64,000 nucleotides of DNA from positions 64,001 through 128,000 of the forward strand of contig JBDKUN010000033.1 of NCBI GenBank assembly GCA_039679675.1. Direction: 5' to 3'. Every line of letters starts with the position of its first letter. Within the stretch, counting starts at the first letter, position 1. Under the pieces are notes generated by a model, which saw only the letters and a program-made list of their open reading frames with translations, was not told where the DNA came from and searched no databases. The position numbers and the translations under genes were made by a program. This DNA comes from Armatimonadota bacterium. Its GTDB lineage: Bacteria; Armatimonadota; UBA5829; DTLH01. This document shows, one piece after another, positions 26,984-44,393 of the stretch.

Positions 26984-27760
26984 TTATCTATGTGGTTTGC
27001 ACGCAAGAAGTGCTGCTCCAAGAGCGCCGGTCATCTGTGGGTTCGGCGCTGTTGAAACGGGATGCCCCAGGACCCGTTCCAGAGCTTTGTCCATTCCGGG
27101 GACGAGTGCGACTCCGCCGGTGAAAACTACAGGGGGAATAACTGATTTTCCTGCCATCGAGGTGATTCTGGTCGCTATGGAGTTCTGGACACCAGCAACT
27201 ATGTCTTCAGGTGCTGTGCCGGATGCCAGAAGCCCGATGATCTCCGTTTCCGCGAATACTATACACATGCTGCTGATCGCTGCGGGGGTTATACTCTTCG
27301 ATGCAAGCTCTCCGAGTTCAGCCAGTTCCACGCTCAAACGGTCTGCGACGACTTCGAGAAAGCGCCCTGTGCCTGCGGCGCATCTGTCATTCATCATGAA
27401 GTCCTGTACGGAGCCGCCGGGGCCGAGCTTCAGGAGTTTGCTGTCCTGTCCGCCTATTTCTACGACTGTACGAGCAGAGGGAACAAGGTGATGCACACCG
27501 CGGGCGTGGCAGGTGATCTCTGTTATAGTCGTATCGGCGATGCTGATGGTGTTTCGCCCGTAGCCGGTCGCTACGATCTTTTGGACATCCTCGGAGTTGT
27601 GGCTGCTGTCCTTTAGAAGATGCTCGTAAAGCTCCATTGCCAGATCATTGCTCTTTACACCCTGTCCAACCGTTCCTGATGCGATGACTTCGTGCGTCTC
27701 GGTATCCACCAGGACTATTTTTATTGCTCTTGATCCGGCATCTATTCCAACCCCGATCAT
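26984..27760 (-). CDS. ATP-dependent activase (HgdC/BcrAD/DCCP-R, ASKHA family)
   Basis: GIDAGS, ATGYGR, EITCHARG, IGGQDSK, MNDRCAAGTGRFLE, SSMCIVFAE. Confidence 0.95.
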   Translation of the reverse strand: MIGVGIDAGSRAIKIVLVDTETHEVIASGTVGQGVKSNDLAMELYEHLLKDSSHNSEDVQKIVATGYGRNTISIADTTITEITCHARGVHHLVPSARTVVEIGGQDSKLLKLGPGGSVQDFMMNDRCAAGTGRFLEVVADRLSVELAELGELASKSITPAAISSMCIVFAETEIIGLLASGTAPEDIVAGVQNSIATRITSMAGKSVIPPVVFTGGVALVPGMDKALERVLGHPVSTAPNPQMTGALGAALLACKPHR

Positions 27761-29127
27761 TACTTCCTCCACTCTCTTGCGGTTTCTATCAGTGCTTCAA
27801 TTCTGGTCATTATCATCGGCTGCATCGAATCAGTAAGCGGCGGCACTTCTATTTCCACCACCGGCAGATTCAGCTTGGCCTTAATGATCCTGCCTATTAT
27901 CGCGCCTTCTGTGGCGCAGTGGCTTGCTCCCGGTATCTTTGAAATTAGGACTGCCTCCGATCCGAAATCTTCGATGTCATTACATATACGCTCTGCCCGG
28001 TCATGAGAACTCCCGACCATCGGGTCAGCAAGCGCCATTCTTGCGAGTGCTTCCATCGGATGCAGGTCTTCAGGTATTTCATCCAACGCATGCGCGAAAA
28101 GGTAGTCGGCCCCGCATATCCGCCCGCCGCAGTCTTCCAACAAATTCATTGCACGCAAATCTGCGACAGGGTTCACCCAGAATATACGGACAGAGTCCTC
28201 CGGCAGTATCCCAATACCTGAGTTTATGCGATTTTGCACTTCAGTGAGCAAATCCTGAAGCACCGCGGCGGTCTCTTCCCTGTCGGAGCAGAAATGGATA
28301 GCGAGCATCTCGGCTATCTGCATCTCAAGCGCGGGCATCGGGCATATCTTCGCGGTAAAAACAGCTTTTCGAAGCTCAGAAAGAGTCTTCCGCACTTTAT
28401 TTGCGGCGCGAATCCCGGCCCTCAGCATATCATCCGTCAGTTTATATCCTGAAAGCTGTTCTAACGCAGTCTTGACCTGCTCAAGCTCGGACTTTACGAA
28501 CGCTACCTGCTCGGATGATGCATAAAACCCGCCCGGAAGCCGGATTGCATCTTCATTTGGGCCTGGTTTATGTCTCGCGGGCATTTCCCACCAGTTGATC
28601 GGATATCCAAGCCCCTCAAGACGCTGCGCAATGGACGAAAAATCATCGCAGGTCGCTCCGACGCTGCATGTGAGCATATCGGGAATCGGAAAATGCGCTT
28701 CGGTGACGAATGCTCCGAGCATCGCGCGCACCGGGCAGAATGATTCATCCAGCCCGTATGATGCGGCAAGATTTAGCAGCCCCTCGCTCATTTCCATGAT
28801 GCATGGAGTCCACCAGGCGCCGTCCGGGTAAAATGCTACCACATTCGGGAGCGAATACGCCATCACCGGGACCGTGCCAAGGTCTTTCATAGTCCCGACA
28901 AGCTTCTTACCTTTGGCTCGGGCCTCCCGCAGCCGGTCTTCTTCGGTCAAAAGGAAGTTCCAGAGCCTGAGCGCTGCTGCGGAATCATCATACCGGAGCT
29001 TGAGCAGCCTGAGGTCTCCATCATCAACGTGTCTTCGGAGCGGGCCGCCGTACCAGGGCTCGTTCAGACCTGCTTCTTTCAACTCGGCATAGCGCCTGTC
29101 CCAGTCACTCAAGGTAATTCCGCTCAT
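27760..29127 (-). CDS. 2-hydroxyacyl-CoA dehydratase / double-cubane family protein
   Basis: FCPVRA, ATCDD, SHCATE, IEV..TRIEALIE. Confidence 0.85.
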   Translation of the reverse strand: MSGITLSDWDRRYAELKEAGLNEPWYGGPLRRHVDDGDLRLLKLRYDDSAAALRLWNFLLTEEDRLREARAKGKKLVGTMKDLGTVPVMAYSLPNVVAFYPDGAWWTPCIMEMSEGLLNLAASYGLDESFCPVRAMLGAFVTEAHFPIPDMLTCSVGATCDDFSSIAQRLEGLGYPINWWEMPARHKPGPNEDAIRLPGGFYASSEQVAFVKSELEQVKTALEQLSGYKLTDDMLRAGIRAANKVRKTLSELRKAVFTAKICPMPALEMQIAEMLAIHFCSDREETAAVLQDLLTEVQNRINSGIGILPEDSVRIFWVNPVADLRAMNLLEDCGGRICGADYLFAHALDEIPEDLHPMEALARMALADPMVGSSHDRAERICNDIEDFGSEAVLISKIPGASHCATEGAIIGRIIKAKLNLPVVEIEVPPLTDSMQPMIMTRIEALIETAREWRK

Positions 29128-30089
29128 TTGATCGACTCCATAAAGGCCTGGATTCTCGATGATGTGCGTATATCAACAATCCCATCGTCATTCGCGTCAA
29201 TCTGGATAAACGGCAGGCCGGACCATTCCTTCAAACGATACGCCTCTGCGTTCCAGTTGTCGCACCAGAGATAACGGCGGAGGATTATGCCTCGCACCCC
29301 GCGTTCTGCAAGTTTCAGTTTGAGCCACTTGAACAGCTCGCTGTTCGGCCTCCTGAATGCGTCTGGAATAGTATTAAAATATGAATCAGCCAGCGCCGCC
29401 ATTGGGTTTTCGTTAAGCAGCCTTCTATCAAACGGCGCTGGAAGTGTCCGCTCACCCGTTTCGGTGGCGTCCAGCGCTACATATCCACCGGCCTTCTCGA
29501 TAAAATCGTATAAGCTGTATTGATTAGCTGGAACAGGCCCGCCGACAAGTGCAACCGGGATGCCGGACGGCACATGCCTCATAGCTGGAACCGCCTGATC
29601 AAAATCTCCAGTTCTATTGAAATCAGCTAAACGAAGAGCCCATTCCCTCGGCGAAAGGCTTCCCTGAAGGTCACGGAGTACGGCTCTCTTATTGTCATAT
29701 TCGAACATCATCTGTTTGAGCAAATCAGGGGTGGGGGTGCTGCCTCCAAGCGCAATCAGAAAATCTCCCAGCCGCTTCAACTCAGAAGCATACAGCTTTT
29801 GCGATTCCACTGTCTGCCAGGTATGCGGTAAGTGCATCAAAAACGCCGGTAGATCAGTGTTTTCAGTGATGATGTCATAAATCCGCCTCATCTGGTCGCA
29901 GGCGGTTGTTACTATGACCCCGGCAGCGGTTTTCTCCTCGATGGAAGCACCTGCAAATGAACAGGCGTAAGGGCACACTCCCGGCCCCAGATTAAGGCTC
30001 GATCTGTCCGGCGATATTCTCGACGGCGATAACCCATATGCCGCAATCCACTCAGCCGGGACGAACGGACAACTGTAGATGATCTTCAA
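29124..30089 (-). CDS. 2-hydroxyacyl-CoA dehydratase family subunit
   Basis: YSCPFVPAEWIAA, VCPYA, TACDQMRR, WCDNW, SRIQAFME. Confidence 0.85.
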   Translation of the reverse strand: MKIIYSCPFVPAEWIAAYGLSPSRISPDRSSLNLGPGVCPYACSFAGASIEEKTAAGVIVTTACDQMRRIYDIITENTDLPAFLMHLPHTWQTVESQKLYASELKRLGDFLIALGGSTPTPDLLKQMMFEYDNKRAVLRDLQGSLSPREWALRLADFNRTGDFDQAVPAMRHVPSGIPVALVGGPVPANQYSLYDFIEKAGGYVALDATETGERTLPAPFDRRLLNENPMAALADSYFNTIPDAFRRPNSELFKWLKLKLAERGVRGIILRRYLWCDNWNAEAYRLKEWSGLPFIQIDANDDGIVDIRTSSRIQAFMESIK

Positions 30090-30092
30090 GCT

Positions 30093-31349
30093 TCAGTCCC
30101 CGCAGCAGCTCGGCGCAGTACACGCATTTTTGACCGTCTCGAAAAGCGCCTCGACCCTGACGGCAATCCGCGCGGAGTCAGAAGGCGAATAGTCGGTTTC
30201 AATCCTCAAGAACGGGACATGCAGCTCATTTTCGGCAAGCTGTTTCACCCGGTAAGATTCGATGCTGTAAGTAATGCACGCCTGCCATGCGAGGTCTATT
30301 ATGCACTCAGCACGGTACTGCCTCGCAATGTCGCGGATTGCGTCGATCCTACGATTGTTCTTCGTCATAACCGAGCAATGCAGATTGAAATACTTTGCAG
30401 CGAGCGCGCGGACCGGGTCGTCTGCATCGGCATCGACGTTTTCCAGAATCGGCTTTAAGCCAGTGCAGTTTTCGGCACAGACTATCAATCCGCCGTGGTC
30501 TTCGATAATATCGATTACCCTTTCCGCCCCATGAACTACCGGAACTCCGGTCAAAAGTACCCTTACTCTAGACGATCTATCGCCATTACCCGATTGTCCC
30601 TCGTATAACTTAACTGCCTTTTCATACTGCTCCAGATCGGCTGGTATGCCTGATATAGTGCTCTTAAGCTCTAGCAACTGCCGGCCTGTAATTGGTGGAC
30701 TATCCAGCTTCATAAGCTCAGCAAGCCGAAGCCTGAGCGCGCGCTCATGGTTCATTAAATCAATTGCTTCTCTGATCTTTTTATCTGTAATCTCTACATT
30801 GAACCGTTTTTCAAGCTCAAATATGAGCTTTTTCAGCTCAAGCACCCAGTGTTCAAATGCGTCGGCATCATCCTGTTTTTGCGGAAGCTCCATTATGTAT
30901 GTCGGTCTCGTCTCAGCCATCAGCTCGAACATCTTCTTCTTGCCGTCGCAGGTGGTCTCTGCGATGATAAGGTCTGCCATTTCAAGAAATGGATTGGAAC
31001 CAAGCGTATGGTAGCCGAATGTTGATTTGATGAGCGGACACAGGTTCGACGGCAGCGTCTCTTCTGCTGCAGGAATTGTCGCAGCAGAGCCGCCACAGAG
31101 GCACACAGGAACACCTCCTGCCGCCATTATCAGCTCTCTTGGGGCGTATTCGCACATAATCCCGACAACCGGCCTGCCTTCGGACTTTGTCTTTTCGGCG
31201 TAGTCCAGGCAGTTGTCGATCATATTATCGAACCAAGCAAGTGGTGCGGAGGAAATATGCCCGGTGGAGCAGGGCAGAGCGCTCGGAGGATTGCATGGAT
31301 CGCAGCTTTCCTTGTGAATATTCTTGTTATTGCCACAGCATCCGCTCAT
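30093..31349 (-). CDS. Double-cubane-cluster protein (DCCP)-like anaerobic reductase
   Basis: MCEYAPREL, NLCPLIKS, ETTCDGKKK, ENCTG, HCSVM, ACITY, ETDYS; extra CC motifs at both termini. Confidence 0.88.
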   Translation of the reverse strand: MSGCCGNNKNIHKESCDPCNPPSALPCSTGHISSAPLAWFDNMIDNCLDYAEKTKSEGRPVVGIMCEYAPRELIMAAGGVPVCLCGGSAATIPAAEETLPSNLCPLIKSTFGYHTLGSNPFLEMADLIIAETTCDGKKKMFELMAETRPTYIMELPQKQDDADAFEHWVLELKKLIFELEKRFNVEITDKKIREAIDLMNHERALRLRLAELMKLDSPPITGRQLLELKSTISGIPADLEQYEKAVKLYEGQSGNGDRSSRVRVLLTGVPVVHGAERVIDIIEDHGGLIVCAENCTGLKPILENVDADADDPVRALAAKYFNLHCSVMTKNNRRIDAIRDIARQYRAECIIDLAWQACITYSIESYRVKQLAENELHVPFLRIETDYSPSDSARIAVRVEALFETVKNACTAPSCCGD

Positions 31350-31361
31350 CTTATTCAGTCC

Positions 31362-32168
31362 CTAGTCTTTCTTATGTGCAACAAACAATCCTTGAATGAT
31401 TTTACCGGCATGTGCGAGTTCTTGGATGAACATCATCTCGCCAGCAAGCGCCTTAAAGAGTTCTGTATCATAACCGATGGTTCTCAGCGCGTCGGAAGTG
31501 AGCTGCATATCGAGCATAGCGAGGTAAAGGTCTACACATGGAGCATATCTCCCGGTATCCTCGCAAATCTTCACATCGCAGCCGCTTGCCGTGAGTAAAT
31601 CGCAGTAGCCGTTTGTGTCCTGTAGGTTCGGGAACTTCATGAACCGCATAAACCGGTCGGCTTCGTCTTTTGTAAGTCCGGCAGGTCCCTCAATCCAGTC
31701 GGTGAAGGCAATAGTCCCGCCCGGCTTTACCAGACGCGCAGCTTCGGCTATCAACTGCGGTTTGTCTTCGACATAGCACCATGCGTCCTCGCCCCAAATG
31801 AAGTCGGCAGTGGAATCGGGAAGCCCGCTGTCGCAGGCATCGGCGAGCGTAAATGTGGCTCTATTGCCAAAACCTTCTTCCGCACACCTGTACTTTGCGC
31901 GGTTCATTACTTCTTCTGTCGCATCGACTCCGTGCATGTGTTTTACATCCTGGAACCTCAGAAGAAACCTCATTCCGGCGCCGTTGCAGCAGCAGAGATC
32001 GATTCCGTAGCCTTTTCCGGCCACTTTGGCCTTTTCGGCAAGGTCCATGGAGGATTTGAATCCGCCTATGTGGATCTGGTGGCCCATAATCAGTTCCCAA
32101 AGATTACCTTCCGGCCCGCTGTACACTGATTGAACGTCACATAACCCTATTCCTTGAATGCCTTTCAT
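31362..32168 (-). CDS. Class I SAM-dependent methyltransferase with CCC in motif I
   Basis: GIDLCCCNGAG, GVD, DFIWGEDAWCY, LVKPGG..FTDW. Confidence 0.85.
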   Translation of the reverse strand: MKGIQGIGLCDVQSVYSGPEGNLWELIMGHQIHIGGFKSSMDLAEKAKVAGKGYGIDLCCCNGAGMRFLLRFQDVKHMHGVDATEEVMNRAKYRCAEEGFGNRATFTLADACDSGLPDSTADFIWGEDAWCYVEDKPQLIAEAARLVKPGGTIAFTDWIEGPAGLTKDEADRFMRFMKFPNLQDTNGYCDLLTASGCDVKICEDTGRYAPCVDLYLAMLDMQLTSDALRTIGYDTELFKALAGEMMFIQELAHAGKIIQGLFVAHKKD

Positions 32169-32184
32169 TGCCCGTCCCCTTTCT

Positions 32185-34107
32185 TTATCTTAAGAGCCTT
32201 CTATCCCCGTCTCTTCTTGTTAAGCAGGTGCTGTCAAAGTATTCCAGAAGCGCAATTGCGTATTTTCGTGAAACCGAGAGAAGATCGCGCAGTTCGGCAG
32301 CTGTAATCCCGCCGTTTGCCTTGATGTACTCGATAACGGACTTTTTCGCTTTCTCAAAGGTGTCTCTATGATATGTGACCTTGTCACTTAAACGCAGTAA
32401 TTGTCCCTGGTCAATAAGGCTCTTCATAACGTTATCGAAGACCTTTGGTGAAAGCCGCAGTTCCTCCATCACATCATCTTCGAGAGGAGTCGAGTAACCA
32501 GCAGCTAAGAAAACCGACTCTATCCTATCTGCCGCCCTCTGTTCGGCATCTGAGAGCTTCGATTGATGGTCCGAGAGTCCAACTTTGTTGTCCCTTTTTA
32601 CCAAAATCTTATTCTCAGCAAGTTTCGAGACAATTGCATCGAAAACCTGCCGGTCGGCAAGCTTCAAGAACCTGGATTGCAGGTCTGCAGCAGGCATCAT
32701 CGTCTTGTAAGCGTCTTTTGAGTAGTAGTCCTTGATAATCTCGATCAGTTTTGCCGTCAGCTCATCGAACCTGTCTTTTTGAAGATACTTCTCTTGAGCG
32801 CCTGAAGCTATCAAGGCGAGCTTTCCAACACTTATAAGCGATTTTATAACTTCGGCTACCTCTGATTCGCTCTCTTCGACGGCAAAAGCAATCTCCGAGG
32901 CAGTCTTTGGCGCGAATCTGGACTTGAAGAAGGCATGATCGACAACATCAGAGATGCAACCTTCGAGCTTCTCCAGTCCTTCGATTGCGGTTTTATCGAA
33001 ACGCTTATGATGCGCGGGCTGTGAGTCGAGTATTGTCCCACCTCCGATGGTCTCCTGCGAAGAGAATGACCGTATGACGAACCTGTCTTTAGGGAGCGCA
33101 ACCGTAGGCGACTCCAGCACAAGCTGCGCATAGCCGGTCTCGCCTGGTATAAGTGTTTCTGCGTCCAGAAGCACTGTGCGGCACATCACCTCGTCTGTCC
33201 CGACGTGCAGCCTGACACGGGTGCGGTTCTTCAGCTCGTCATTGTAGCTCTGAGACACGAAAAGCCGGACATCGAGAAGCGTAGTAGGGGAGAGCGAGCC
33301 GGGAGCGCAGGCGACCTGCCCGCGTCTTAATTGATCCTTCTTCACATCCTGAAGGTTGATAGCTGTGCGCCTGCCGAGATAAGACCTTTCCTTGCTCTCA
33401 TTGTGAATCTGTATTCCGCGGACTCTTGCATTTAGTCCATCGGGCATTATCTCCAGCCTGTCGCCGACATTTACCTCGCCTGATAATACCGTCCCCGCAA
33501 TGACCGCGCCGAAGCCCTGCAACGCAAAAACGCGGTCTACAGGCATCCTGAATATTCCGCTGTCCCGGCGTTTTTTGGTCTTCCCGGCAACAGAAATGAG
33601 GGCAGACCGCACTTCATCGACCCCGGCTCCGGTAATTGCCGAAACAGGGATAATCGGTTGGCTTTCGAGGAATGTCCCGGCGACGAGACTTTCAATATCT
33701 GACTTAACGATGCGTATATGCTCATTGTCTACGAGATCGGCCTTAGTGATTGCAATAATCCCGGTCTCTACTCCGAGGATTCGCAGAATATCAAAGTGCT
33801 CGCGCGTCTGGACATTGATTCCCTCGTCAGCGGCTACTACCAAGAGCGCTGCGTCTATATTGCTTGCGCCTGCAACCATCGTCTTGATGAGCTTTTCATG
33901 TCCGGGGACATCAATGAAGACGATTTGCCGGTCGAGCCCTGGCGTCTCCAAAAAGGCGAAGCCGAGCTCGATTGTGATTCCACGCTTTTTCTCTTCTGTA
34001 AGCGTGTCACAATCAAAGCCGGTGAGCGCTTTAACCAAAGCTGTCTTTCCGTGATCGATGTGCCCGGCAGTCCCAATTATTGTTTGTTCAATCTCAATAA
34101 GTGTCAT
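32185..34107 (-). CDS. selB: Selenocysteine-specific elongation factor
   Basis: GTAGHIDHGKT, GITIELGF, DVPGHE, C-terminal SRKYAIALLEYFD..TRRDGDRR; start moved to ATG 34107. Confidence 0.97.
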   Translation of the reverse strand: MTLIEIEQTIIGTAGHIDHGKTALVKALTGFDCDTLTEEKKRGITIELGFAFLETPGLDRQIVFIDVPGHEKLIKTMVAGASNIDAALLVVAADEGINVQTREHFDILRILGVETGIIAITKADLVDNEHIRIVKSDIESLVAGTFLESQPIIPVSAITGAGVDEVRSALISVAGKTKKRRDSGIFRMPVDRVFALQGFGAVIAGTVLSGEVNVGDRLEIMPDGLNARVRGIQIHNESKERSYLGRRTAINLQDVKKDQLRRGQVACAPGSLSPTTLLDVRLFVSQSYNDELKNRTRVRLHVGTDEVMCRTVLLDAETLIPGETGYAQLVLESPTVALPKDRFVIRSFSSQETIGGGTILDSQPAHHKRFDKTAIEGLEKLEGCISDVVDHAFFKSRFAPKTASEIAFAVEESESEVAEVIKSLISVGKLALIASGAQEKYLQKDRFDELTAKLIEIIKDYYSKDAYKTMMPAADLQSRFLKLADRQVFDAIVSKLAENKILVKRDNKVGLSDHQSKLSDAEQRAADRIESVFLAAGYSTPLEDDVMEELRLSPKVFDNVMKSLIDQGQLLRLSDKVTYHRDTFEKAKKSVIEYIKANGGITAAELRDLLSVSRKYAIALLEYFDSTCLTRRDGDRRLLR

Positions 34108-34122
34108 TTTGAAACACGAATT

Positions 34123-34412
34123 CCCTATGCATCGGGACCGCAGTTCGTCCCGATGCACGACATTCACAAATTTAAAAAGTTTCTTCGCTTCGCTAGCCTG
34201 TATTGTTCGAAGAAAATACAGGCAGAATGACATTGTTGCTTCGGACCGCTTGCTGCCGAAGCGTTCGCCGCAGGCGGACTTCACCCTATGCTTCGGGATC
34301 GCAGTCCATCCTACTACCCCGTGGACCTACTGGACCACGGGGGTATTAACCGTGGACCTACTGGACCACGGGGGTATTAACCGTGGTCTCACCGGACCAC
34401 GTGGAGAAGCAC
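34123..34412. repeat. Composite palindromic cluster between selD and selB, with a 31-nt tandem repeat
   Basis: Family C hairpins at 34123-34172 and 34235-34305; CCGTGGACCTACTGGACCACGGGGGTATTAA x2 (34319, 34350) plus a degenerate third at 34381. Confidence 0.8.
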
Positions 34413-34454
34413 AAGTCTCCACAAAACCCACTCCTAAATCCTGAATTCTAACTC

Positions 34455-36032
34455 CTAAATCTTATTCATAACCGATTCGTAAAACATCCTGACAGGTGCG
34501 CCGCCGAAAGAGATCGCCATCCACACTGCCTCGTCAATCTCTTCTTCGCCGATCCCCATGCCCCGCGCCTTATTGATGTGAATTTTGATGCATGGCTCGC
34601 ACTTGGATAAAACCGACAGTGAAATTGCCATAAGTTCTTTTGTTCGGAGTGAAACTGCGCCAGGTGCATTGACTGTGCGCATAAAGTCACCGAATATCTC
34701 TTCTGCTGTTGATTGCGTACTCGTTTTTGTCTCAACTGGCGCGGCACAGCAGTCTGCACTCATTGATGAGCAGCAGGCTCCGTCATTTGGTTCTGGCATA
34801 TCAGCACTCTCCTTACGCGTCGGGGTATATGTCCCACTGCTGGTTCTCAAGAGGATTCTACCTTCTGATTTTGAGATGACTTTCCCTATAACTGTCGCAT
34901 GGCTAACGCCCCGTGACCTGAGCTTTTCGACCAATGCGCCGGATTTTGCCTCAGAAATGGCTATCAAAAGCCCTCCAGAGGTCTGCGGGTCGTACAGGAC
35001 GTGGACTATTTCTTCCGGTACATCGCTCGATACGGAAACACGGCTGGAGGCGTATTCGCTGTTTCTCTCGATACCGCCGGAGATGTATCCCTGTGCAACA
35101 TAGTCTAATATTTCATCAAAAACCGGCACTTGATCGGTGTAAACTTCTGCCGTAACGCCGCTCTGCGATACCATCTCGCCGAGGTGTCCCAGAAGGCCGA
35201 ATCCAGTTACATCCGTAGCCGTCGTGACTCCCATCTCGCTAATAACCTCGGCGGCAGCCTTGTTTAGCTCGGTCATGGACTTCGCTGCAGCGGCCAGTGC
35301 AGCGCCGGATGCTTTTCCCATCTGCCCTGCAAAGCTGATGATGCCGACTCCGAGCGGTTTTGTAAGCACCAATAGATCACCAGGCTGCGCTTTATCGTTT
35401 GTAATGATTCTGGACGGATTGACTATCCCCGTGACGGCGTAACCGAACTTGGGGTCTTTGTCGTTGACGCTGTGCCCGCCTATGATTGCAACCCCGGCTT
35501 CCTGCATTTTGTCCATCCCGCCGCGAAGCATCTGGGCCATTATCTCGTGACTCAATGTTTCGATAGGAAAACCGATTACCGAGAGCGCTGTCATCGGCTT
35601 TCCGCCCATCGCATAGACATCACTGAGTGAGTTCGCGGCGGCTATCTGGCCGAAGGTGTACGGATCGTCTACACTTGGCGTGAAAACATCCACTGTCTGA
35701 ACAAGCGCGGTATCTTCGTCAATTTTGTAGACACCGGCATCGTCGCACGTGTTCGTGCCGACAAGAACGCGAGGGTCCGACACCTGCGGGAGCCCGGAAA
35801 GTACCTTTTTTAAGTCATTCTGGTTGATCTTGGAGGCGCAGCCTGCCTTCTCGACTAGCGTTGTGAGATTAACATGCTCAATCGTCTGTTCCGGGCGCTC
35901 TCCGGCGCACGGACATATATTCTTATTTTTGAAAGTGTCGCAAGGGCAACCCTGCTTGGGGTTACAGATGCAGTGCCCCAGCTTTATGGACCGCTGCATG
36001 ACTCGGCGTCTTTTTTCGATGTCTATTTTCAT
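34455..36032 (-). CDS. selD: Selenophosphate synthetase fused to an N-terminal Cys-rich domain and a C-terminal AhpD/CMD domain
   Basis: AGCASK, DDAGVY, QTVDVF, AAANSLSDVYAMGG, GGHS, TDVTGFGLLGH, DPQTSGGLL; N-term CICNPKQGCPC..CPC; C-term KELMAIS..CEPC..H. Confidence 0.95.
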   Translation of the reverse strand: MKIDIEKRRRVMQRSIKLGHCICNPKQGCPCDTFKNKNICPCAGERPEQTIEHVNLTTLVEKAGCASKINQNDLKKVLSGLPQVSDPRVLVGTNTCDDAGVYKIDEDTALVQTVDVFTPSVDDPYTFGQIAAANSLSDVYAMGGKPMTALSVIGFPIETLSHEIMAQMLRGGMDKMQEAGVAIIGGHSVNDKDPKFGYAVTGIVNPSRIITNDKAQPGDLLVLTKPLGVGIISFAGQMGKASGAALAAAAKSMTELNKAAAEVISEMGVTTATDVTGFGLLGHLGEMVSQSGVTAEVYTDQVPVFDEILDYVAQGYISGGIERNSEYASSRVSVSSDVPEEIVHVLYDPQTSGGLLIAISEAKSGALVEKLRSRGVSHATVIGKVISKSEGRILLRTSSGTYTPTRKESADMPEPNDGACCSSMSADCCAAPVETKTSTQSTAEEIFGDFMRTVNAPGAVSLRTKELMAISLSVLSKCEPCIKIHINKARGMGIGEEEIDEAVWMAISFGGAPVRMFYESVMNKI

Positions 36033-36036
36033 ACCA

Positions 36037-37428
36037 CTACTCATTCCTAAAGATAGCTCGAATCGCATCTACCACGTTGCTGTCTTCATTCGGCTGAATT
36101 GTCCTGAAGTCGAACAACACCGACTCCTGATGTATACGCGCAAATATCGGAGTGTCGTTATATCTGAGTTTTCTTGCGAGCGAATCGGCAGACATGTTCT
36201 CAGACTTCACACTGAGGAGTTTTGTTGCTATAGTTTCGGCGGGAACAGACCCGCTCCCGACCTGTGATCTGCCATCTATTACGGATACCTCTGCTGATAT
36301 ATCTCCGAGCTTGTCAGCCACAGCCTGCACACGTCTGTCGAGCTCATCCAGCGGGGTAGAAAGCATTCTGTAAGTCGGATGCCTCTCCTCCAGCCTGTCG
36401 GGACCCAAAAATAGCTTGAGAGTAGCCTCCAGTGCCGCGACTTCCATCTTTCCGACTCTGAGAGCCCTTGCGAGCGGATTTTTCTTGATCTTTTTGATGG
36501 TCTCTTCCATCCCGATGATAATCCCGGACTGCGGCCCGCCGATCAGCTTGTCTCCGCTGAAGCATATCGCATCGCATCCCGCCTTCACACTTGCCTGCAC
36601 CATCGGCTCAGACTCAAGCCCGTATTTGGTAAGGTCAACTAGCGCGCCGCTTCCCAGGTCGTCGATAATTGGGATGCCATGTTCCTTCGCAAGTGGGGCC
36701 ATCTCTTCAACAGTAGGCTCTGCAGTGAACCCGACTATCCTGTAGTTACTCTGGTGGACGTGCAGGATGGCTCCAGTGTTCTCATTTATGGCTGCAGCGT
36801 AGTCTCGAAGGTGAGTTTTGTTCGTAGTTCCGACTTCGCGCATGATCGCGCTGCTCGCTGCCATCACATCAGGCATACGAAACGCACCGCCGATCTCTAC
36901 TAACTGACCACGGGAGACGATTACTTCTTTACCGGCTGCAATCGTGTTCAGAATCAGCATTGTGGCGGCAGCATTGTTGTTCACAATGGTCGCCGCTTCA
37001 GCTCCGGTGAGTTCACAGAGCAGTCTGCTTATGTGGATGTCCCGGCTGCCTCTCTGTCCCGTCTCAATATCAGTCGCAAGGGTGCAGTAGCCTTTTATAA
37101 CATCACTTACCGCCGTAGCGGCAGCTTCAGAGAGCATCGCTCGTCCAAGTCCAGTATGAAGTATGATTCCTGCGGCGTTTATGGCGTGCCGTATAGACGG
37201 CCTGAACTCGGCTTTGATGTATTCCAGAACTATCCCGCCGACGTTCTCAGGTGATAGGTCCATCTCCGGCCCATCTTCACTGATGATTCGGCTGCGTAGC
37301 TTGTCCACGACTTTCCGGCATGAGTCGGCGAGAAATTCACGGTCATGATCATCTAGCGCACTCTTCAGCGCTTCCGTATTCATCAATTCATCTATTGCAG
37401 GCAGTTTCCGCAGGATGTCTTTCTTCAT
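36037..37428 (-). CDS. selA: L-seryl-tRNA(Sec) selenium transferase
   Basis: INAAGIILHTGLGRA, VNNNAAA, SRGQLVEIGGAFR, EVGTTNKTH, DDLGSG, FSGDKLIGGPQ. Confidence 0.97.
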   Translation of the reverse strand: MKKDILRKLPAIDELMNTEALKSALDDHDREFLADSCRKVVDKLRSRIISEDGPEMDLSPENVGGIVLEYIKAEFRPSIRHAINAAGIILHTGLGRAMLSEAAATAVSDVIKGYCTLATDIETGQRGSRDIHISRLLCELTGAEAATIVNNNAAATMLILNTIAAGKEVIVSRGQLVEIGGAFRMPDVMAASSAIMREVGTTNKTHLRDYAAAINENTGAILHVHQSNYRIVGFTAEPTVEEMAPLAKEHGIPIIDDLGSGALVDLTKYGLESEPMVQASVKAGCDAICFSGDKLIGGPQSGIIIGMEETIKKIKKNPLARALRVGKMEVAALEATLKLFLGPDRLEERHPTYRMLSTPLDELDRRVQAVADKLGDISAEVSVIDGRSQVGSGSVPAETIATKLLSVKSENMSADSLARKLRYNDTPIFARIHQESVLFDFRTIQPNEDSNVVDAIRAIFRNE

Positions 37429-37463
37429 TGAATGTCCCTCAGGTTATCTCAAGTCTCAAATAT

Positions 37464-37501
37464 AAAAAACGGGGGCTGACGCATCACGTCAACCCCCGTT
37501 T
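37464..37501 (-). terminator. Intrinsic terminator-like hairpin just upstream of selA
   Basis: Minus strand GGGGGTTGACG-TGATG-CGTCAGCCCCC followed by GTTTTTT. Confidence 0.7.
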
Positions 37502-37539
37502 AATACTGAATTCTGCCCGAAATAGTTGTAATAACTCTA

Positions 37540-38253
37540 CTATCTTGTCCAGATAGTATCTTTTATCGTTACTTTAAATGGGCCGGTTTGAAGCACAGGG
37601 CGAACTGTGACACGTCCTTTTACACTTGATGGTATTCCCCCGGAATACGTGCATGTGCCGCCTCACCCATACTTGAATGACCCACTCCAGACCACCTTGC
37701 CAGTGCTGTTTATTACTTTGAAGCGTGGAGGGTCGGTTTCTCCATCAGATTTTTTGATTACACATTTGTTGTTGCCCTGAGCAGTAACTACGTTGAGGTC
37801 CAGATCTGCTTTGTTGCCGTGCTTGGTGACTTTTATGGACGCGATGAAAGGCGGGCCAAAATTAAGTTTCTGAGCCTTATTCGCCGAGATATCGATCTTG
37901 AGCGTATTACCAGGCGATATAGATGCGGTCCAGCTCACATTGTTCTTATCTTTAGCTATCGCGTCGCAGCCCCAGACATCATGATTACCGACAGGTAAAA
38001 GCAGCACACCATTAGTGGTAGAATATTCGCTGATTTTCCTGCCTGAGTTGCTGAACGTCGTAAGTACAGCATTCCCATGGTAAGGAAGAGTCACTTTTCC
38101 CATCTTACCTTTGTACGTTTTGGGGTCAAAGCGCTCGAATCCAAGAGTGCCGCTCTTGGCGGAATAGCTGGTTATACCGATTGCCACGAGCGCGCATACA
38201 CCGGCCAAAACTGATGCCATGATTTTTCTGGAGTTCTTTTGAATTGTGGTCAT
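37540..38253 (-). CDS. Putative exported selenoprotein (237 aa with Sec; YGUGGTC motif)
   Basis: TGA at 37663-37665 is followed in frame by GGTCTYSGGIPSSVKGRVTVRPVLQTGPFKVTIKDTIWTR then TAG; SECIS-like hairpin; N-terminal signal/TM; GGAGG SD; next to selA. Confidence 0.75.
37632..37648 (-). promoter_or_regulatory. Candidate bacterial SECIS element 1
   Basis: GTATTCC-GGG-GGAATAC stem-loop starting 14 nt after the UGA; G-containing loop. Confidence 0.65.
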
Positions 38254-38327
38254 TCTTCTTTTCTCACCTCCTTTCGCAGTAGCATTAATGAATCTCAGGT
38301 ATTAACCGAAACGCCATAGGCGGGATT

Positions 38328-39113
38328 CTACTTGGAGCCAAGTTTCAAATGGCCGATTGGTGTGCAGTCCAGGCACCTGATGCATTCGGCACTGTTAATA
38401 TCGTCAACCGGGTCAATATCGACCGGGCATTTCTTTGCGCATGCGCCGCAGTGAGTGCACTTGTTCATCGCAAGACGCATCCTGAAAATGGATATTCTAT
38501 TGAAAAGCGAGAATATAGCGCCGAGCGGGCAGAACATCCTGCAGAAGCCGCGAGTGACGAGTATCGTAAATATGAAGAACGCAGCCAGAATAGAGACCCT
38601 CACATAAAACATAAGGTTCATAGGAGATGTCTCGTGCAAAAACAGCCGGCGAGGAAGAGCTGATTCCAATGTCCCAGACGGGCAGAAATTACAGAATGAG
38701 TATGGTGCGCCGGGAAAGAAAAACGGCACGATAAATACCAGCCCGACAAGAACAAGATACTTTGTGTATCTGAGCGGCCGCGGGATCGAGAACTTTTTAA
38801 CAGGGATTTTTGATAATAAATCCTGCAGCAGCCCGAACGGACATATCCATCCGCAGACCAGCCTGCCGAGGAAAGCGCCGACCAGTCCGAGTATCCCTAA
38901 AGTGACGAATGGAATGATCCTGAACGTTGAAAAGTTCACGAGCACGCCGATAGGGCAGGCGAACATAGAGAGCGGACACGAATGACAGTAAAGCGCCGGA
39001 CAGCATATGGTCTTCAGATCAAAATAGGGAAGACCCAGGATCACTAGCGCGATAAACTGGCTCAGATAGCGCAATCTCGTTAATCGTTTAGTTTTTTTGA
39101 TTATGGACCCCAT
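38328..39113 (-). CDS. Membrane 4Fe-4S binding protein (NapH/MauN/YccM-like)
   Basis: CHSCP..ACPIG, CGWICPFG, CNFCPSG, FCRMFCPLG, CTHCGACAKKCP, CIRCLDC with TM helices. Confidence 0.88.
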   Translation of the reverse strand: MGSIIKKTKRLTRLRYLSQFIALVILGLPYFDLKTICCPALYCHSCPLSMFACPIGVLVNFSTFRIIPFVTLGILGLVGAFLGRLVCGWICPFGLLQDLLSKIPVKKFSIPRPLRYTKYLVLVGLVFIVPFFFPGAPYSFCNFCPSGTLESALPRRLFLHETSPMNLMFYVRVSILAAFFIFTILVTRGFCRMFCPLGAIFSLFNRISIFRMRLAMNKCTHCGACAKKCPVDIDPVDDINSAECIRCLDCTPIGHLKLGSK

Positions 39114-39119
39114 AATCAA
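39097..39119 (-). promoter_or_regulatory. Candidate bacterial SECIS element 2, overlapping the next start codon
   Basis: Perfect 10-bp stem TTGATTATGG-GGT-CCATAATCAA starting 15 nt after the UGA. Confidence 0.65.
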
Positions 39120-39128
39120 TCCTCTCTA

Positions 39129-39419
39129 TTACAGTCAAGTAGGGCACGCTTTGCCGCCGGATTTGGACTTTCCGGACTTTTTGTTATCTTTGGATATACT
39201 CGGATTTTCAGCAGGAACTTCCAGCTTTCCGTCTTTGCCGCGGATAACGCTATGGGTCAGGCTGAGTTCCGTTATGGTGAACTCGCTTTTTGAGGATTTT
39301 CCTGCATTGTATTTGACGAAAAAGGTGGAATACAGGATGATCCCCGCGAAGATAACCAACAGGGCAATAAGGAGCAAGGGGCGCGTGCTTCGATTTGTAG
39401 TGATATTCTCTTCGGACAT
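39129..39419 (-). CDS. Putative small membrane-anchored selenoprotein (96 aa, C-terminal CPTU-L)
   Basis: Single TM; reads TGC CCT ACT TGA CTG TAA TAG, a CxxU motif followed by a tandem stop; SECIS-like hairpin downstream. Confidence 0.7.
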
Positions 39420-39567
39420 GCTTCTATCCCCTTTAGCATCTACTGAGTTTCAGGTGTCACCCGAAACTCTCCCGAAAGATTTCGGTAATAGTTGGTATAT
39501 GGTTGGTCTCTAATTGAACAGCCGAAAATTACAGTAGCGACATTACAACAACCGCATCTACATAAAA

Positions 39568-39596
39568 AGTCTATTCCCCAAACCGGCTGTTGTCAA
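39568..39596 (-). promoter_or_regulatory. Sigma70-type promoter of the selenoprotein operon
   Basis: Minus strand TTGACA-17-TAGACT. Confidence 0.65.
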
Positions 39597-39692
39597 TACC
39601 GTATTTAAGACTATCACATCCTATATGAGTCACAGTAGAGATTAACACTAATATATATGTGATGAATATTGTGCGGAGTGTCACAAAAAATA

Positions 39693-39721
39693 TTGACAGG
39701 TGTAGTTGACTCACATATACT
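39693..39721 (+). promoter_or_regulatory. Sigma70-type promoter of the divergent large gene
   Basis: TTGACA-17-TATACT. Confidence 0.7.
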
Positions 39722-39768
39722 GAAACTACTTGCAATAGATGAGCTGGTAGTCTGGGAGGATCGTATCC

Positions 39769-42700
39769 ATGCGTTGGGTTGCTGCGATAGTGCTTATTCT
39801 GCTTGCTTCTGGTGTAGCTGCTGCGGCTGATGGTATTGATAGAGCTTCTCTAATGGCGGAAGGCCAGAAAGCCGAACTCGCCGGCAAGTGGTTGGATGCC
39901 GCTTTGGCATATTCCGGAATCCTTGTCGAATCTCCTGATGACCCTGAGATCAACCTGAAAGTGGCAGAAATGCTTATAGGGCTAAATTGGCCGGAAGATG
40001 CAGCTTCGTTTCTTGTAAAAGCACTTGATTCACTTAATAGTGACCCCGGAGCATCAAACGAGCTCAAAATGCAGGTCTGTGATGCTCTCATGAACCGTTT
40101 GCCGGCTGCATTGACATCCAGAAAAGATTATAAATGGAACTCCTATAATGCCCCATTCGATACTTTGCCGCAAGCTGAGAAGATAAGAATATATAGATCA
40201 GTACCCCATGACTGGTTGATAAAATCTAAACTACAAGAAGCATATTTACTTCGAAGTGTATCGGAATATGAAAGAGCAGACTCTCTGGCGCATGCGGCGA
40301 TTATTGAAGGCGATTGGCAATGGGGTGCGGCATACCTGTCAAGCTCCGGCCTGGATAACTTTAACCGCGAGTATCTGCTAAACAAGTGGCGAAAAGAAGC
40401 TGAAAGGACCGACAACCCGATGCTTTGGATAGTGCTTTCCGCTGCTTACGCTCGCACAGCGCGAACCGCGGCTTTTTTCGATACATTTCCACGCGTAATA
40501 AAAGCTGTAAAAAAGTTTGATGAGATGCTGGTCGAGTTGCAGGGAATCTGTGAAGAGTTGAAGTGGGATGATGGTGTTAGTAGAGTCAAAAAGCTATTAC
40601 CACCTCCGATCAGTAAGGAAGAGCCAATCAGCCAAAAAGAGCCAATCAGCCAGATAGAACCAAAAGTTGATCCCTGTCCCAAGTTAAGCAAAGCTGTAGC
40701 TGAAAAGAACCTGAAGCAGGCGGAATTAATCGTGTCGAAGCTTCAGGAGGACAGCCCCAGGCTGCTGAAAGAAGCCGGTACCCCGGAGTTACTTGAAGCA
40801 ATGCTTGTGAATGGTTGGGATGACCTTGCGTTAAAGATAGCACCTCACAGCAACGACCCATATGAATTTTCCCCTGTTGTGATACCTATGATCAAGACAT
40901 CGTTATATAATCGGCCCCAATTAGAGAATCGAATCAAGAATATCCTGAATTACCATTTACCTGAGCAAGTCGCGGAGAAAGTGGAGGAAGTAATCCACGC
41001 TCGTTCTTCTCATTATGATGAAGAACCACAGGATGAAAGGGTCTGGTACCTCGAAAATACTGTAAATTTACTGCCTGAACACACTGTTTTAACGGAATTA
41101 TTGATTGATGAATATGAAAATGAAGGTTATTCCCCGAAGGCGTTCGATGTCGCAATCAGAGCAGCAAAGCTTCCCGGAAAGATAGAAAGTCAGGAATCGC
41201 CGCTGATTACCTACGCAAGAAACTACAATCAATCAAAGGAATCAAATGATAAGTTATTCGAAACCAGGAAACAGCTTTCGGTAGACGAACTTCTTGGTAT
41301 AGCAGCCGAATGTAATGAAAATCAGAATCCGGCCGAGGCGATTCGTTGGATCGATGAGGCAATATCGGTTTCGATAAGCCGGTATTACACGAAAAAGGCG
41401 GCATCAGTCGTACCGGTCTATCCGAATATTCCGCAGAATGAATTGAAAGAAATAGCCTCCAGCACAGAGAATGGCAATAACCCGTTCAGCGGCGGCATCT
41501 ATCGGCTCAGGCTTGATTGCCTGGGTAAGCTCGGACGCAAGAATGAAGCACGTCTCGTGCTTAGTGAGGCAAAAAAGCTTTATCCTAACGAGGATTTCGA
41601 GAATTCTCCAAAAGAGCAGAAAGTTTCAGAAAAACCCGAGTCCGTGATCAGTATTCCGTCCTTGTCAGGCAGTGCCTTTCCCGGTATTTTGCCTATATGC
41701 GCTGTACCAGTGCCGGCTGACCCCGCAGATAACCTTCTCTATCTTAAAGAGCAGGTTAGGGCTGCAGGGCTTCCAAATTCAAATGTCAGCATTCATTACG
41801 CGGTTACGGATCTGGCAAACGCGCTTGCAAAATCATCCGCCAATGAGAACATTGATGTTTTGGCAAGGCAACTGCTGCCGCTAATGCCGAGGTATCAAAA
41901 ACTTCTTGTTTTGTCTGTGGATTTATTCAGGAACCGAATGTCTGCTGTAATTCCACTTGCAAGATGTACATTGTATATTGACAAAAGTTCAAAAGATGGT
42001 CAATTTACAGCTACTTGCTATTGCGCCAGTGCGATTGCCAGGACCGGCGATAATGGATTAGCCTGTGCGTACGCGTTGGCAGCCACTTTAATAGAACCCA
42101 ATCTTTCGCCACTTGATAAATTCTGGAACAAGGCTCCTGCAGGGGGCTGGTATAATTCGTTACCCAAGGCAGATTACGATGAGTTGATGGTACTGCTGGC
42201 CGAAGATCTGCCACACGGCTACCCTTATGATTATGTGAAGGGTATTCCCATAATAAAGCTGGGTGATTTGTATAGGCAGTATTTGGATAGAGTATACCGC
42301 TTAACGGGCACGCTCCGTTCTGAACTCAATCAGAATTCTCTGAATCGGTCCTCATTGCGCATTGACCGGGGGCTCGATGAATTGAGCAAAGGTAATAGAG
42401 ATTGGAAACCATTCACAGCAGCGGATGCTCGCGAACTTGCTGTTTGTATGTTTCAGGAAGGGATGAAAGCCCAGGCAATAAGGTTCCTCGATATCGTTAT
42501 TGCAAATATTGATGAAAATGAAAAACCAAAAGTAATAGAGTTATCGCAAAGGATCAGAGAATTAGATGAGCTTGCTGTGATAGTAACTCCTTACACTCTT
42601 TCGCCTGCCGTAACGGAGTTGCTGGACTCTGGAAAACGCAATGATGCATGGAACTTATGCTGTAAATTCTTCGAAGAAAATGAAATTGTGGAATATAGGG

Positions 42701-43503
42701 CAAAAGCTTTATCCGAAATGGTTAGAATCGATCCGCATAAAGCATTCAGGCTCATAAACACATACATTCCTAATATGCGAATAGGTAATAATGGTCTGTA
42801 TTATATCAACGCTGCAGTTTACCAGCTTCTCCGCAGTGATCCAAAATCAGCAGTGAAAGCGCTACCTGTGTTGAAACGATTGGTAGAAATCAGTAAATAT
42901 GGAACCGAAAACTGTGCCCGTAAATATGGAGCCGAAAACTGTGCTCGTCGCAACTACGCATTGGCGTTGATTCTTGCAGGCCAAAATGATAAGGGTATCG
43001 ATATTTTGTTCCATTTGGATGACCCGCTTTATCATGCATTTAGGATTATAGATGATGCCTGCATACCGAAAAAAATACGGCTTGTTGTTTCAAACGGCTT
43101 AAAAGAATATTTGCGCACCGAGAAACCAAGTATAGCTGGTCTATCGGAAGTGCTGGGGGGGTATGGTGGAGCAACCTCGCAGGATGGCGTTGTTCTTATA
43201 ATGGACTACCTCTCGGAATATATAAGAGACAGAGATTGTTTCATTACAGAAGAATTCATCCAGAAGGTTTATAATGTTCAGTTCAGTTTTATTAGTGATA
43301 AGATTGAACCTGAAGTAAAGGATACCGTATATACCTTTTTTAAAACGGTTATTCTGAAAGCAGCAGCCACTCCGGGAGATAAAAGGGAGTTGGGTGCATG
43401 GTTGCTTAACAGATCTGAAGGTCCTATTTGCATGGGCTATGGTACAACGAAACAATTCAAACAATTGTATAATTTCGCCATTAATCTTTATAACGGAGGA
43501 TAA
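39769..43503 (+). CDS. Large secreted alpha-helical/TPR-like hypothetical protein (1244 aa)
   Basis: Signal peptide, GGAGG SD, TPR-like segments, lower GC, short internal tandem duplications. Confidence 0.7.
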   Translation: MRWVAAIVLILLASGVAAAADGIDRASLMAEGQKAELAGKWLDAALAYSGILVESPDDPEINLKVAEMLIGLNWPEDAASFLVKALDSLNSDPGASNELKMQVCDALMNRLPAALTSRKDYKWNSYNAPFDTLPQAEKIRIYRSVPHDWLIKSKLQEAYLLRSVSEYERADSLAHAAIIEGDWQWGAAYLSSSGLDNFNREYLLNKWRKEAERTDNPMLWIVLSAAYARTARTAAFFDTFPRVIKAVKKFDEMLVELQGICEELKWDDGVSRVKKLLPPPISKEEPISQKEPISQIEPKVDPCPKLSKAVAEKNLKQAELIVSKLQEDSPRLLKEAGTPELLEAMLVNGWDDLALKIAPHSNDPYEFSPVVIPMIKTSLYNRPQLENRIKNILNYHLPEQVAEKVEEVIHARSSHYDEEPQDERVWYLENTVNLLPEHTVLTELLIDEYENEGYSPKAFDVAIRAAKLPGKIESQESPLITYARNYNQSKESNDKLFETRKQLSVDELLGIAAECNENQNPAEAIRWIDEAISVSISRYYTKKAASVVPVYPNIPQNELKEIASSTENGNNPFSGGIYRLRLDCLGKLGRKNEARLVLSEAKKLYPNEDFENSPKEQKVSEKPESVISIPSLSGSAFPGILPICAVPVPADPADNLLYLKEQVRAAGLPNSNVSIHYAVTDLANALAKSSANENIDVLARQLLPLMPRYQKLLVLSVDLFRNRMSAVIPLARCTLYIDKSSKDGQFTATCYCASAIARTGDNGLACAYALAATLIEPNLSPLDKFWNKAPAGGWYNSLPKADYDELMVLLAEDLPHGYPYDYVKGIPIIKLGDLYRQYLDRVYRLTGTLRSELNQNSLNRSSLRIDRGLDELSKGNRDWKPFTAADARELAVCMFQEGMKAQAIRFLDIVIANIDENEKPKVIELSQRIRELDELAVIVTPYTLSPAVTELLDSGKRNDAWNLCCKFFEENEIVEYRAKALSEMVRIDPHKAFRLINTYIPNMRIGNNGLYYINAAVYQLLRSDPKSAVKALPVLKRLVEISKYGTENCARKYGAENCARRNYALALILAGQNDKGIDILFHLDDPLYHAFRIIDDACIPKKIRLVVSNGLKEYLRTEKPSIAGLSEVLGGYGGATSQDGVVLIMDYLSEYIRDRDCFITEEFIQKVYNVQFSFISDKIEPEVKDTVYTFFKTVILKAAATPGDKRELGAWLLNRSEGPICMGYGTTKQFKQLYNFAINLYNGG

Positions 43504-43516
43504 ACTGGAGGTAACG

Positions 43517-44308: not shown

Positions 44309-44355
44309 TGGTAAAATATCCCTCCGAGTCCACACCGGAGGGCTAACCTCTCCAT

Positions 44356-44384
44356 TTGACAGCAGGGTGCTGCCGGGATAGAAT
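44356..44384 (+). promoter_or_regulatory. Sigma70-type promoter, likely near-leaderless transcript
   Basis: TTGACA-17-TAGAAT ending 9 nt before ATG 44394. Confidence 0.6.
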
Positions 44385-44393
44385 TTGACTACG

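Follow-up and report, generated by a model that had tools for sequence, protein, structure and literature searches.

One minus-strand gene of the 64,000-nucleotide stretch of Armatimonadota DNA analysed here (contig JBDKUN010000033.1, positions 64,001 to 128,000; "the window" below) carries an in-frame UGA codon just upstream of selA, and we consider it highly probable that this gene is a real selenoprotein of a new family. Taken as a whole, the observations are very probably best explained by a 237-residue, exported selenoprotein of a GUGGxC family, decoded by SelB. The gene does not stand alone, being a member of a large, apparently undescribed, multi-phylum exported family that is tied to sel genes. 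The family has selenocysteine (Sec, U) in most copies and is cut short at the TGA by gene callers. The recurrence of the same TGA, motif, and hairpin in hundreds of homologues is far beyond chance.

A sequence-only reading of the window had proposed this gene from its reading frame, and most of what it described is confirmed. The open reading frame (ORF) 37663-38253 on the minus strand holds 196 codons from the ATG to TGA 37665-37663, after which the frame runs on for 40 sense codons, GGTCTYSGGIPSSVKGRVTVRPVLQTGPFKVTIKDTIWTR, to TAG 37542-37540. A Cys codon, TGC at 37653-37651, follows four residues after the UGA (UxxxC). The gene lies directly upstream of selA, which starts at 37428, and the proposed N-terminal signal or transmembrane segment is found as a 20-residue hydrophobic stretch after the N-terminus MTTIQKNSRK. 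The 7-bp stem described 14 nucleotides (nt) downstream of the UGA, GTATTCC paired with GGAATAC, also stands; the single-G loop does not, since the loop is GGG, which is only a small correction. A terminator-like hairpin (37501-37467) is found behind the TAG, 39 nt away, rather than behind the TGA.

Conservation of the UGA codon and its hairpin

When the read-through product was searched in six frames against 61 related genomes, 11 of them gave matches. The eight best relatives, with identities of 87% to 33%, have exactly one TGA each and align to query residue 233-237. A profile of 14 read-through sequences (A1) was run over 401 genomes of Armatimonadota and 301 of Planctomycetota, the latter being the phylum of a Sedimentisphaerales metagenome-assembled genome, and the TGA codons in the match rows were tallied by hand. 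Sixty Armatimonadota genomes matched in 96 rows, 82 with one TGA, 1 with TGA and TAG, and 13 with none; 72 Planctomycetota genomes matched in 122 rows, 98 with one TGA, 1 with two, and 23 with none. The sequence-only reading had stated that it would fall if homologues ended at YG with TAA or TAG. They have TGA there instead, share it at the same site, and remain conserved through all 237 residues of the product, which supports the selenoprotein reading.

The column of residue 197 was read in an alignment of 61 unique domain copies taken from the fetched loci: 52 have U, 3 have C, one each has S and W, and 4 are gapped. Homologues with Cys at the Sec position and conservation of GGTC and the residues after it had been named beforehand as support for Sec, and both were found, the conserved motif being GG-x-C. 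Cys forms occur at three loci (L048, L051, and L052) and in three full-length database proteins (P0107, P0039, and P0077), for example FGCGGVCEYSG in L048 and YSCGGVCRYSG in P0107; the full-length TGA-less database proteins have Cys, Ile, Gln, or Gly at this column. The motif of the Sec loop is [FY]-G-U-G-G-x-C-x-Y-S, and Cys is present at +4 (or at +5 after a one-residue insertion) in 47/52 Sec sites. It is also present at +4 in 83/83 sites of other phyla, but there the search pattern itself required Cys. The 40 downstream codons are conserved at the protein level down to relatives of 15-25% identity. Relative to the orthologue from the same genus, 7 codons of the extension differ synonymously and 4 non-synonymously; for the first 196 codons the numbers are 24 and 26.

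A hairpin is found 14-17 nt past the UGA in all 52 of the 52 unique UGA sites. Its stems are diverse (GUAUUCC/GGAAUAC, GUACUC/GAGUAC, GGUACGUC/GGCGUGCC, CGCUCUC/GAGAGCG, and GUACCUU/AAGGUAC), and its loops are rich in G and U. In alignment A3, 7/8 pairs show double-sided changes, 77.6% of the cells are paired compared to 65.9% after shuffling, and 53 cells are changed on both sides compared to 19.4. The covariation score is 0.364, against 0.160 in the shuffled alignments, and the observed values were reached by 0/500 shuffles. Sec forms have a mean hairpin energy of –8.6 kcal/mol, whereas 8/9 TGA-less homologues lie between 0 and –3.7; the ninth has a strong hairpin, but at another position. 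The available text of the 2026 selenoprotein inventory describes the bacterial selenocysteine insertion sequence (SECIS) as a stem-loop that closely follows the UGA on its 3' side and has a small apical loop, containing G or U, at a distance of 16-37 nt from the codon (PMC13188914). The hairpin here agrees with that model, with 24 nt from the UGA to the loop and G in the loop. An Rfam scan of 30000-45000 (E up to 10) returned four chance-level matches, none of them at the hairpin.

The window encodes selA, selD, and selB, and a tRNA-Sec with anticodon TCA is located at G000:C42, which completes the set that a genome requires for a selenoprotein (SelA, SelB, SelD, and tRNA-Sec). Co-occurrence was cross-tabulated by hand, with selA called at E<=1e-20. 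In Armatimonadota, selA is present in 50/52 genomes with TGA forms, in 4/8 with TGA-less forms only, and in 218/401 overall; in Planctomycetota the corresponding counts are 56/57, 12/15, and 221/301. TGA is the stop codon of 9/43 long ORFs in the window and of several family genes that also contain an internal TGA. Elsewhere TGA is an ordinary stop, as in the standard genetic code.

The family is visible by exhaustive protein search, which gave 343 clusters of database relatives at E<=0.001; a word-index search missed all but the gene itself and a single relative at 87%. Of 151 sequences from the exhaustive search, 138 stop exactly before the Sec position (126 of these ending YG or FG), 11 are full-length TGA-less forms, and 2 are partial. 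All source names seen among the relatives are "hypothetical protein". The DNA pattern [FY]G-UGA-GG-x-C-x-YS-xx-[IV]P, run over one genome per species, matched at least 127 stretches, from which 80 loci with 83 unique sites were fetched, typically FEYG-U-GGTC-x-YSWRVP. The matches listed come mostly from Planctomycetota (Pirellulales, Phycisphaerae, and Sedimentisphaerales), Verrucomicrobiota, Kiritimatiellia, Lentisphaerae, Sumerlaeota/BRC1, Hydrogenedentota, Riflebacteria, Acidobacteriota, and Armatimonadota. TGA forms occur in 52/401 and 57/301 genomes of the two profiled phyla, and some genomes have 5-8 family copies. Architectures in the family vary: some members are short and anchored, as here, some are long (450-1100 residues) and begin with different domains, and in some a multi-pass membrane domain follows the Sec domain.

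Several individual members show variations. L048 (G220:C29:27136-27495), a Cys form from a genome in which selA was not found, retains a decayed 5-pair SECIS remnant and looks like a recent Sec-to-Cys change. In one pair of tandem paralogues (L013 / L078, G027:C19) one copy is without TGA and has the U-G-G-x-C loop swapped for an unrelated stretch; in another (L004 / L075, G018:C176) both copies keep Sec. L014, L015, L008, and L011 use TGA twice, at the Sec site and as a real stop ~45 codons on, and by eye no hairpin follows the second. L015 (G000:C22:58607-59215) is a second, long family member in the genome studied here, with ~479 residues and the loop FG-U-GGVCEYSVRIP; its N-terminal region contains the motif LDES-x-GTGKGYD, and no Pfam or NCBIfam model matched that region. 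In L109, L132, L144, and L158 of Planctomycetota, a multi-pass membrane domain of ~250 residues follows the Sec domain and has no Pfam or NCBIfam match; a Fer4_5 gene adjoins L144 and L158.

Predicted fold and gene neighbourhood

The AlphaFold2 model, calculated from a 97-row alignment, has a mean predicted local distance difference test score (pLDDT) of 87.1 and a predicted template modelling score (pTM) of 0.78. The pLDDT of residues 1-33 is below 50, consistent with an anchor and linker, and two beta-sandwiches are predicted at residues 38-130 and 133-237. The strands at 201-206, 214-220, 228-231, and 233-236 are all encoded after the UGA and have a pLDDT of 96-98, and the Sec loop (191-200) has a pLDDT of 80. 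A 196-residue product would therefore be without four strands. The sequence-only reading had suggested a structural check of the extension, and the predicted fold requires it. All family members inspected by eye begin with a signal-like or membrane segment, and the protein is predicted either to sit in the cytoplasmic membrane by an anchor or to be exported through it, with its two immunoglobulin (Ig)-like domains outside the cytoplasm.

Fold comparison matches the second domain to the C-terminal domain of PorU (VIA Z 8.6, root-mean-square deviation (rmsd) 3.1, 92 aligned) and to MG1 of E. coli alpha-2-macroglobulin (4zjg; Z 8.4, rmsd 2.1, 74 residues aligned). With Foldseek against the PDB, TM scores stayed low, at 0.2-0.3, for two-domain Ig proteins such as DUF3823, and no match of a PDB profile search had an E value under 0.006. 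None of the Foldseek, VIA wide, and PDB profile results indicates a function. In Pfam, no family member scored above threshold. Weak matches to MG2 (PF01835) were seen in 3/14 members, with a best E of 1.1e-5. Scores of 19.0 and 17.4 bits, compared to a gathering cut-off of 32.8, do not place the family in MG2. The likeness to MG2/macroglobulin-type domains is one of fold, with profile scores below threshold, and we know of no Sec or Cys loop in MG2.

On the minus strand, the genes follow each other in the order NapH-like Fer4_5 ferredoxin, selenoprotein, selA, selD-AhpD/CMD, selB, methyltransferase, and three HGD-D genes (Table 1).

Table 1 Features of the selenoprotein gene and its neighbours in the window
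Feature	Position	Strand	Basis or detail
Whole selenoprotein gene	37540..38253	-	237 codons + TAG stop (37540-37542); translation with TGA=U
Start codon ATG	38253-38251	-	sequence
Sec codon UGA, residue 197	37663..37665	-	aligned column across homologues
Cys201 codon TGC, C of U-G-G-x-C	37651..37653	-	four residues past UGA
SECIS-like hairpin	37632..37648	-	5' arm GTATTCC 37648-37642, GGG loop 37641-37639, 3' arm GGAATAC 37638-37632
N-terminal hydrophobic segment, ~residues 12-30, after basic stretch	38164..38220	-	signal anchor or signal peptide (predicted)
First beta-sandwich domain, ~residues 38-130 (predicted)	37864..38142	-	AlphaFold2 strands 38-129, pLDDT 90-98
Second, Sec-bearing Ig-like/MG2-like beta-sandwich, residues 133-237 (predicted)	37543..37857	-	AlphaFold2, fold comparison
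GGAGG Shine-Dalgarno-like site, 13 nt ahead of ATG	38267..38271	-	sequence
Terminator-like hairpin, 16 pairs, T tail, between TAG and selA	37467..37501	-	sequence
NapH/MauN-like membrane polyferredoxin (Fer4_5)	38328..39119	-	PF12801 7.2e-17; TIGR02163 1.8e-15, below its cut-off
selA	36037..37428	-	PF03841, 2.2e-145; synteny
selD fused to C-terminal AhpD/CMD domain	34455..36068	-	TIGR00476 378.7 bits; PF02627
selB	32185..34284	-	profile match
Methyltransferase (31362-32168) + three HGD-D family genes	27760..32168	-	profile matches
Double-cubane reductase, one of three HGD-D genes	30093-31349	-	NF040772, 416 bits vs cut-off 350

A Fer4_5 gene stands directly beside the family gene in 8/15 Armatimonadota loci. 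Since 13 of these 15 were picked for their nearness to selA, the selA count among them is biased. The 80 loci of other phyla, examined with a 1.5 kb flank, were not picked by their neighbours, and some of them overlap. By local hidden Markov model (HMM), 22/80 contain at least one of a sel gene, Fer4_5, the methyltransferase, or the double-cubane gene (Fer4_5 7, selA 6, selD 3, selB 1, methyltransferase 5, and double-cubane 5); Pfam confirmed Fer4_5 in 4, SelA in 3, SelD in 2, and the methyltransferase with HGD-D in 2. The distance between selA and the family gene is ~3 kb or less in at least 11 genomes of Planctomycetota, where the two are co-directional or, often, divergent, and in at least 10 Armatimonadota genomes the family gene is directly beside selA. 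A preprint, in the part of the text available, finds 955/970 strong NF040772 double-cubane proteins in SelD-holding assemblies and suggests a role in selenium-compound chemistry (10.1101/2022.07.06.499078); the cluster here puts double-cubane-type genes next to selB.

Some features of the neighbours were also seen. SelD has a Cys-rich N-terminal extension in addition to AhpD/CMD, and the fusion occurs in 5/5 loci checked (the window, L075, L077, L079, and L081). The listed GTG start of selB is probably too far upstream, with the true start further in, as its GTPase domain does not begin until about residue 69 (~65 codons past the GTG). The methyltransferase has weak DVU_1556-like and ArsM-like matches, and the pair of methyltransferase and HGD-D genes adjoins family genes in L093 and L116 of Planctomycetota. 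A 1244-residue ORF with a signal-like start (39769-43503, plus strand) is divergent from the Fer4_5 gene.

Proposed mechanism and competing explanations

We propose that SelB and tRNA-Sec would decode UGA 37665-37663 as selenocysteine, directed by the hairpin with a G-rich apical loop whose start lies 14 nt downstream. The N-terminal hydrophobic segment would anchor or export the product, so that its Ig-like domains lie outside the cytoplasm. Sec197 would be situated in a Gly-rich loop of the second domain with Cys201, its likely partner, four residues on. In the periplasm or on the cell surface, the two may be linked reversibly as a selenenylsulfide or may provide a binding site for a chalcogen or soft metal, and the upstream-encoded NapH-like membrane ferredoxin may supply the electrons that keep the pair reduced. 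We infer a function as an extracytoplasmic Se–S redox or carrier centre. This redox or carrier mechanism is put forward tentatively, and we rate it a little below an even chance.

Several points weigh against the selenoprotein reading or the function proposed for it. A control alignment slid by -2 is still fairly high, with 66% paired, because the hairpin of one subfamily (U-G-F-T-C) lies one base further 5'. The hairpin overlaps strongly conserved codons (YSGGIP), and part of its conservation is therefore at the protein level. The relatives are not independent, so the shuffle and co-occurrence figures overstate significance and should be read as descriptive. At E<=1e-20, selA was not found in three genomes with TGA forms, G127, G225, and G466, of which G127 is 98% and G225 86% complete. 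The support consists of sequence, RNA-signal, and model evidence, and the selenium in the protein is predicted. Two metatranscriptome libraries, from the study to which the source sample probably belongs, contain short identical contigs, possibly from DNA carry-over, that cover the gene's 5' end and a portion of the Fer4_5 gene; they span 38079-38312 and 38863-39037, not the TGA, and are therefore neutral on read-through. As regards function, the fold searches give generic Ig-like, FN3, or macroglobulin-type matches alone, and a Z near 8 reflects a common arrangement. The cluster motifs of E. coli NapH are reported to face the cytoplasm, which makes direct contact with a domain outside uncertain.

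The linkage to sel genes allows two readings: the module feeds selenium to SelD, or it is the main client travelling with the machinery. In the first, the Sec/Cys loop outside the cytoplasm would bind or reduce selenium species and, together with the NapH-like protein, hand selenium to SelD, and the gene would belong to the sel cluster as a feeder of the pathway. The positions beside selA in Armatimonadota and within ~3 kb of it in Planctomycetota speak for such capture and relay, as do the neighbours found at 22/80 loci of other phyla and the fusion of selD here to an AhpD-like thiol domain. In addition, the available text of the 2026 inventory treats the question of which donor supplies SelD with selenium in vivo as unresolved (PMC13188914). 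Against this, many copies, the long forms, are far from sel genes, some genomes have 5-8 family copies, and no conserved transporter is located next to the gene. The linkage could also reflect machinery co-inherited with its main client, as described for fdhA in Proteobacteria in the text available to us (PMC4807772). On balance we consider capture and relay unlikely. A wider version would make the family a signature selenoprotein of the Planctomycetota–Verrucomicrobiota group and Armatimonadota, in which an Ig-fold selenol/thiol module and a NapH-like ferredoxin would capture and reduce external selenium, or related chalcogen or organometal species, that are passed to SelD-AhpD, the methyltransferase, and the double-cubane reductases. 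We regard this version as improbable; if true, no dedicated system for acquiring or processing selenium would have been built around an exported selenoprotein before this one.

The gene could instead act as a regulatory leader, in which translation of the UGA senses the supply of Sec-tRNA and tunes the downstream selA, selD, and selB, and the protein itself matters less. Its place immediately upstream of selA on the same strand, seen in one order of Armatimonadota, and the strong terminator-like hairpin between the two genes would suit such a role. However, the protein is conserved over its whole length and has a confident predicted fold, many family copies are away from selA, and in Planctomycetota the gene is often divergent from it. 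The terminator begins well past the TAG, with no obvious alternative pairing with the coding region, although no dedicated test was made. We find a leader function highly improbable.

That the TGA is an ordinary stop, with a 196-residue product and a non-coding or remnant remainder, agrees with every public gene call, all of which end there. This is very nearly untenable in view of the downstream codons, which are conserved in protein even in distant relatives, change more often synonymously than non-synonymously, and supply four strands of the fold; the terminator, moreover, comes after the TAG, and TGA forms track selA. Reading of the TGA as Gly or Trp in an altered code, or a sequencing error or pseudogene break, deserves practically no credence: the loop is Gly-rich and TGA-less homologues have Gly (P0136) or Trp (L047) at the site, but TGA ends other ORFs of the window as well as family genes, the sequence is identical in two DNA assemblies (possibly not independent of this DNA), and the same codon recurs across phyla with a covarying hairpin.

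If the selenoprotein reading is true, about a seventh to a fifth of the genomes sampled in two phyla carry a family, in as many as 8 copies each, that is mis-annotated as truncated hypothetical proteins, and the selenoproteomes of these groups are therefore undercounted. The family is unusual in being exported, in having an Ig-like rather than a thioredoxin fold, and in having Sec copies far above Cys. Methods leaning on Cys homologues would therefore miss it, and the deep-Sep authors themselves, in the available part of their text, state a limit tied to reliance on such homologues. The locus, with selA, selD, selB, the methyltransferase, and the double-cubane reductases, offers a concrete place to ask how selenium reaches SelD, and it bears on why double-cubane proteins track SelD, as described in the available text of 10.1101/2022.07.06.499078.

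Database status and comparison with known systems

The sequence-only reading did not recognise the family, and Pfam, NCBIfam, and two published inventories likewise hold nothing that fits. NCBIfam release 20.0 (June 2026) gave no meaningful match for 9 family members (E up to 0.1-1). The available texts of the inventories list 87 selenoprotein families in 2022 (PMC9312934) and 119 in 2026, all with domain identifiers, mostly Pfam, TIGRFAM, and NF and a few cd or PTHR (PMC13188914). No U-G-G-x-C or UxxxC family appears in the available text of either, where families with only cd or PTHR identifiers were compared by listing, not by profile (PMC9312934, PMC13188914). Literature searches on motif strings (YGUGG and similar) returned unrelated papers only, and those on selenoproteins of these phyla nothing relevant; some recent selenoprotein surveys are outside the comparison, so an earlier description is possible. 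The one paper found for selenoproteins and Armatimonadetes deals with Planctomycetes and names fdhA and fmdB alone in its main text.

Two groups with a larger share of Cys, GOS_A and GOS_B, were considered and set aside. They have far more Cys than Sec members (2 Sec vs 155 Cys, and 11 vs 125), unlike the family here, and the existing NCBIfam model of GOS_B does not match the family. DUF1573 is itself an Ig-like domain, and the DUF1573 selenoprotein (PF07610) is the nearest in concept in the inventories: like the protein here it is a predicted bacterial selenoprotein with Sec beside Gly and Cys in a domain without a thioredoxin fold. Its motif, however, is UGC rather than U-G-G-x-C, and PF07610 matched no family member at E up to 0.1-1, so we do not count the family as DUF1573. 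According to the available inventory texts, the DUF1573 selenoprotein was published from a deltaproteobacterial symbiont (PMC9312934, PMC13188914). The UGSC-containing protein (NF041046) and hypothetical protein DG (NF049953, GUxG) are similar in being predicted selenoproteins of unknown function with Sec beside Gly; neither model matched the 9 family members in the NCBIfam search.

For the proposed mechanism, two periplasmic Ig-fold domains provide work-alike models, both of them served by membrane or partner redox proteins. The N-terminal domain of DsbD (nDsbD) has a reactive Cys pair. SoxY carries sulfur species covalently on a Cys in a Gly-rich GGCGG arm; that Cys is at the C-terminus, whereas the Sec here is in an internal loop. 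No match to nDsbD or SoxY turned up in the Foldseek, VIA, or PDB profile searches, which does not exclude either.

The closest parallel for decoding is SelB-dependent recoding of the fdhF type, with which the family shares an in-frame UGA, a downstream hairpin with G in a small apical loop, the sel genes with tRNA-Sec, and Cys homologues. Compared to bacterial SECIS-dependent selenoproteins in general, it differs in that Sec is far above Cys (52 vs 3 of 61), that the protein is predicted to be exported, and that its predicted fold is not that of thioredoxin.

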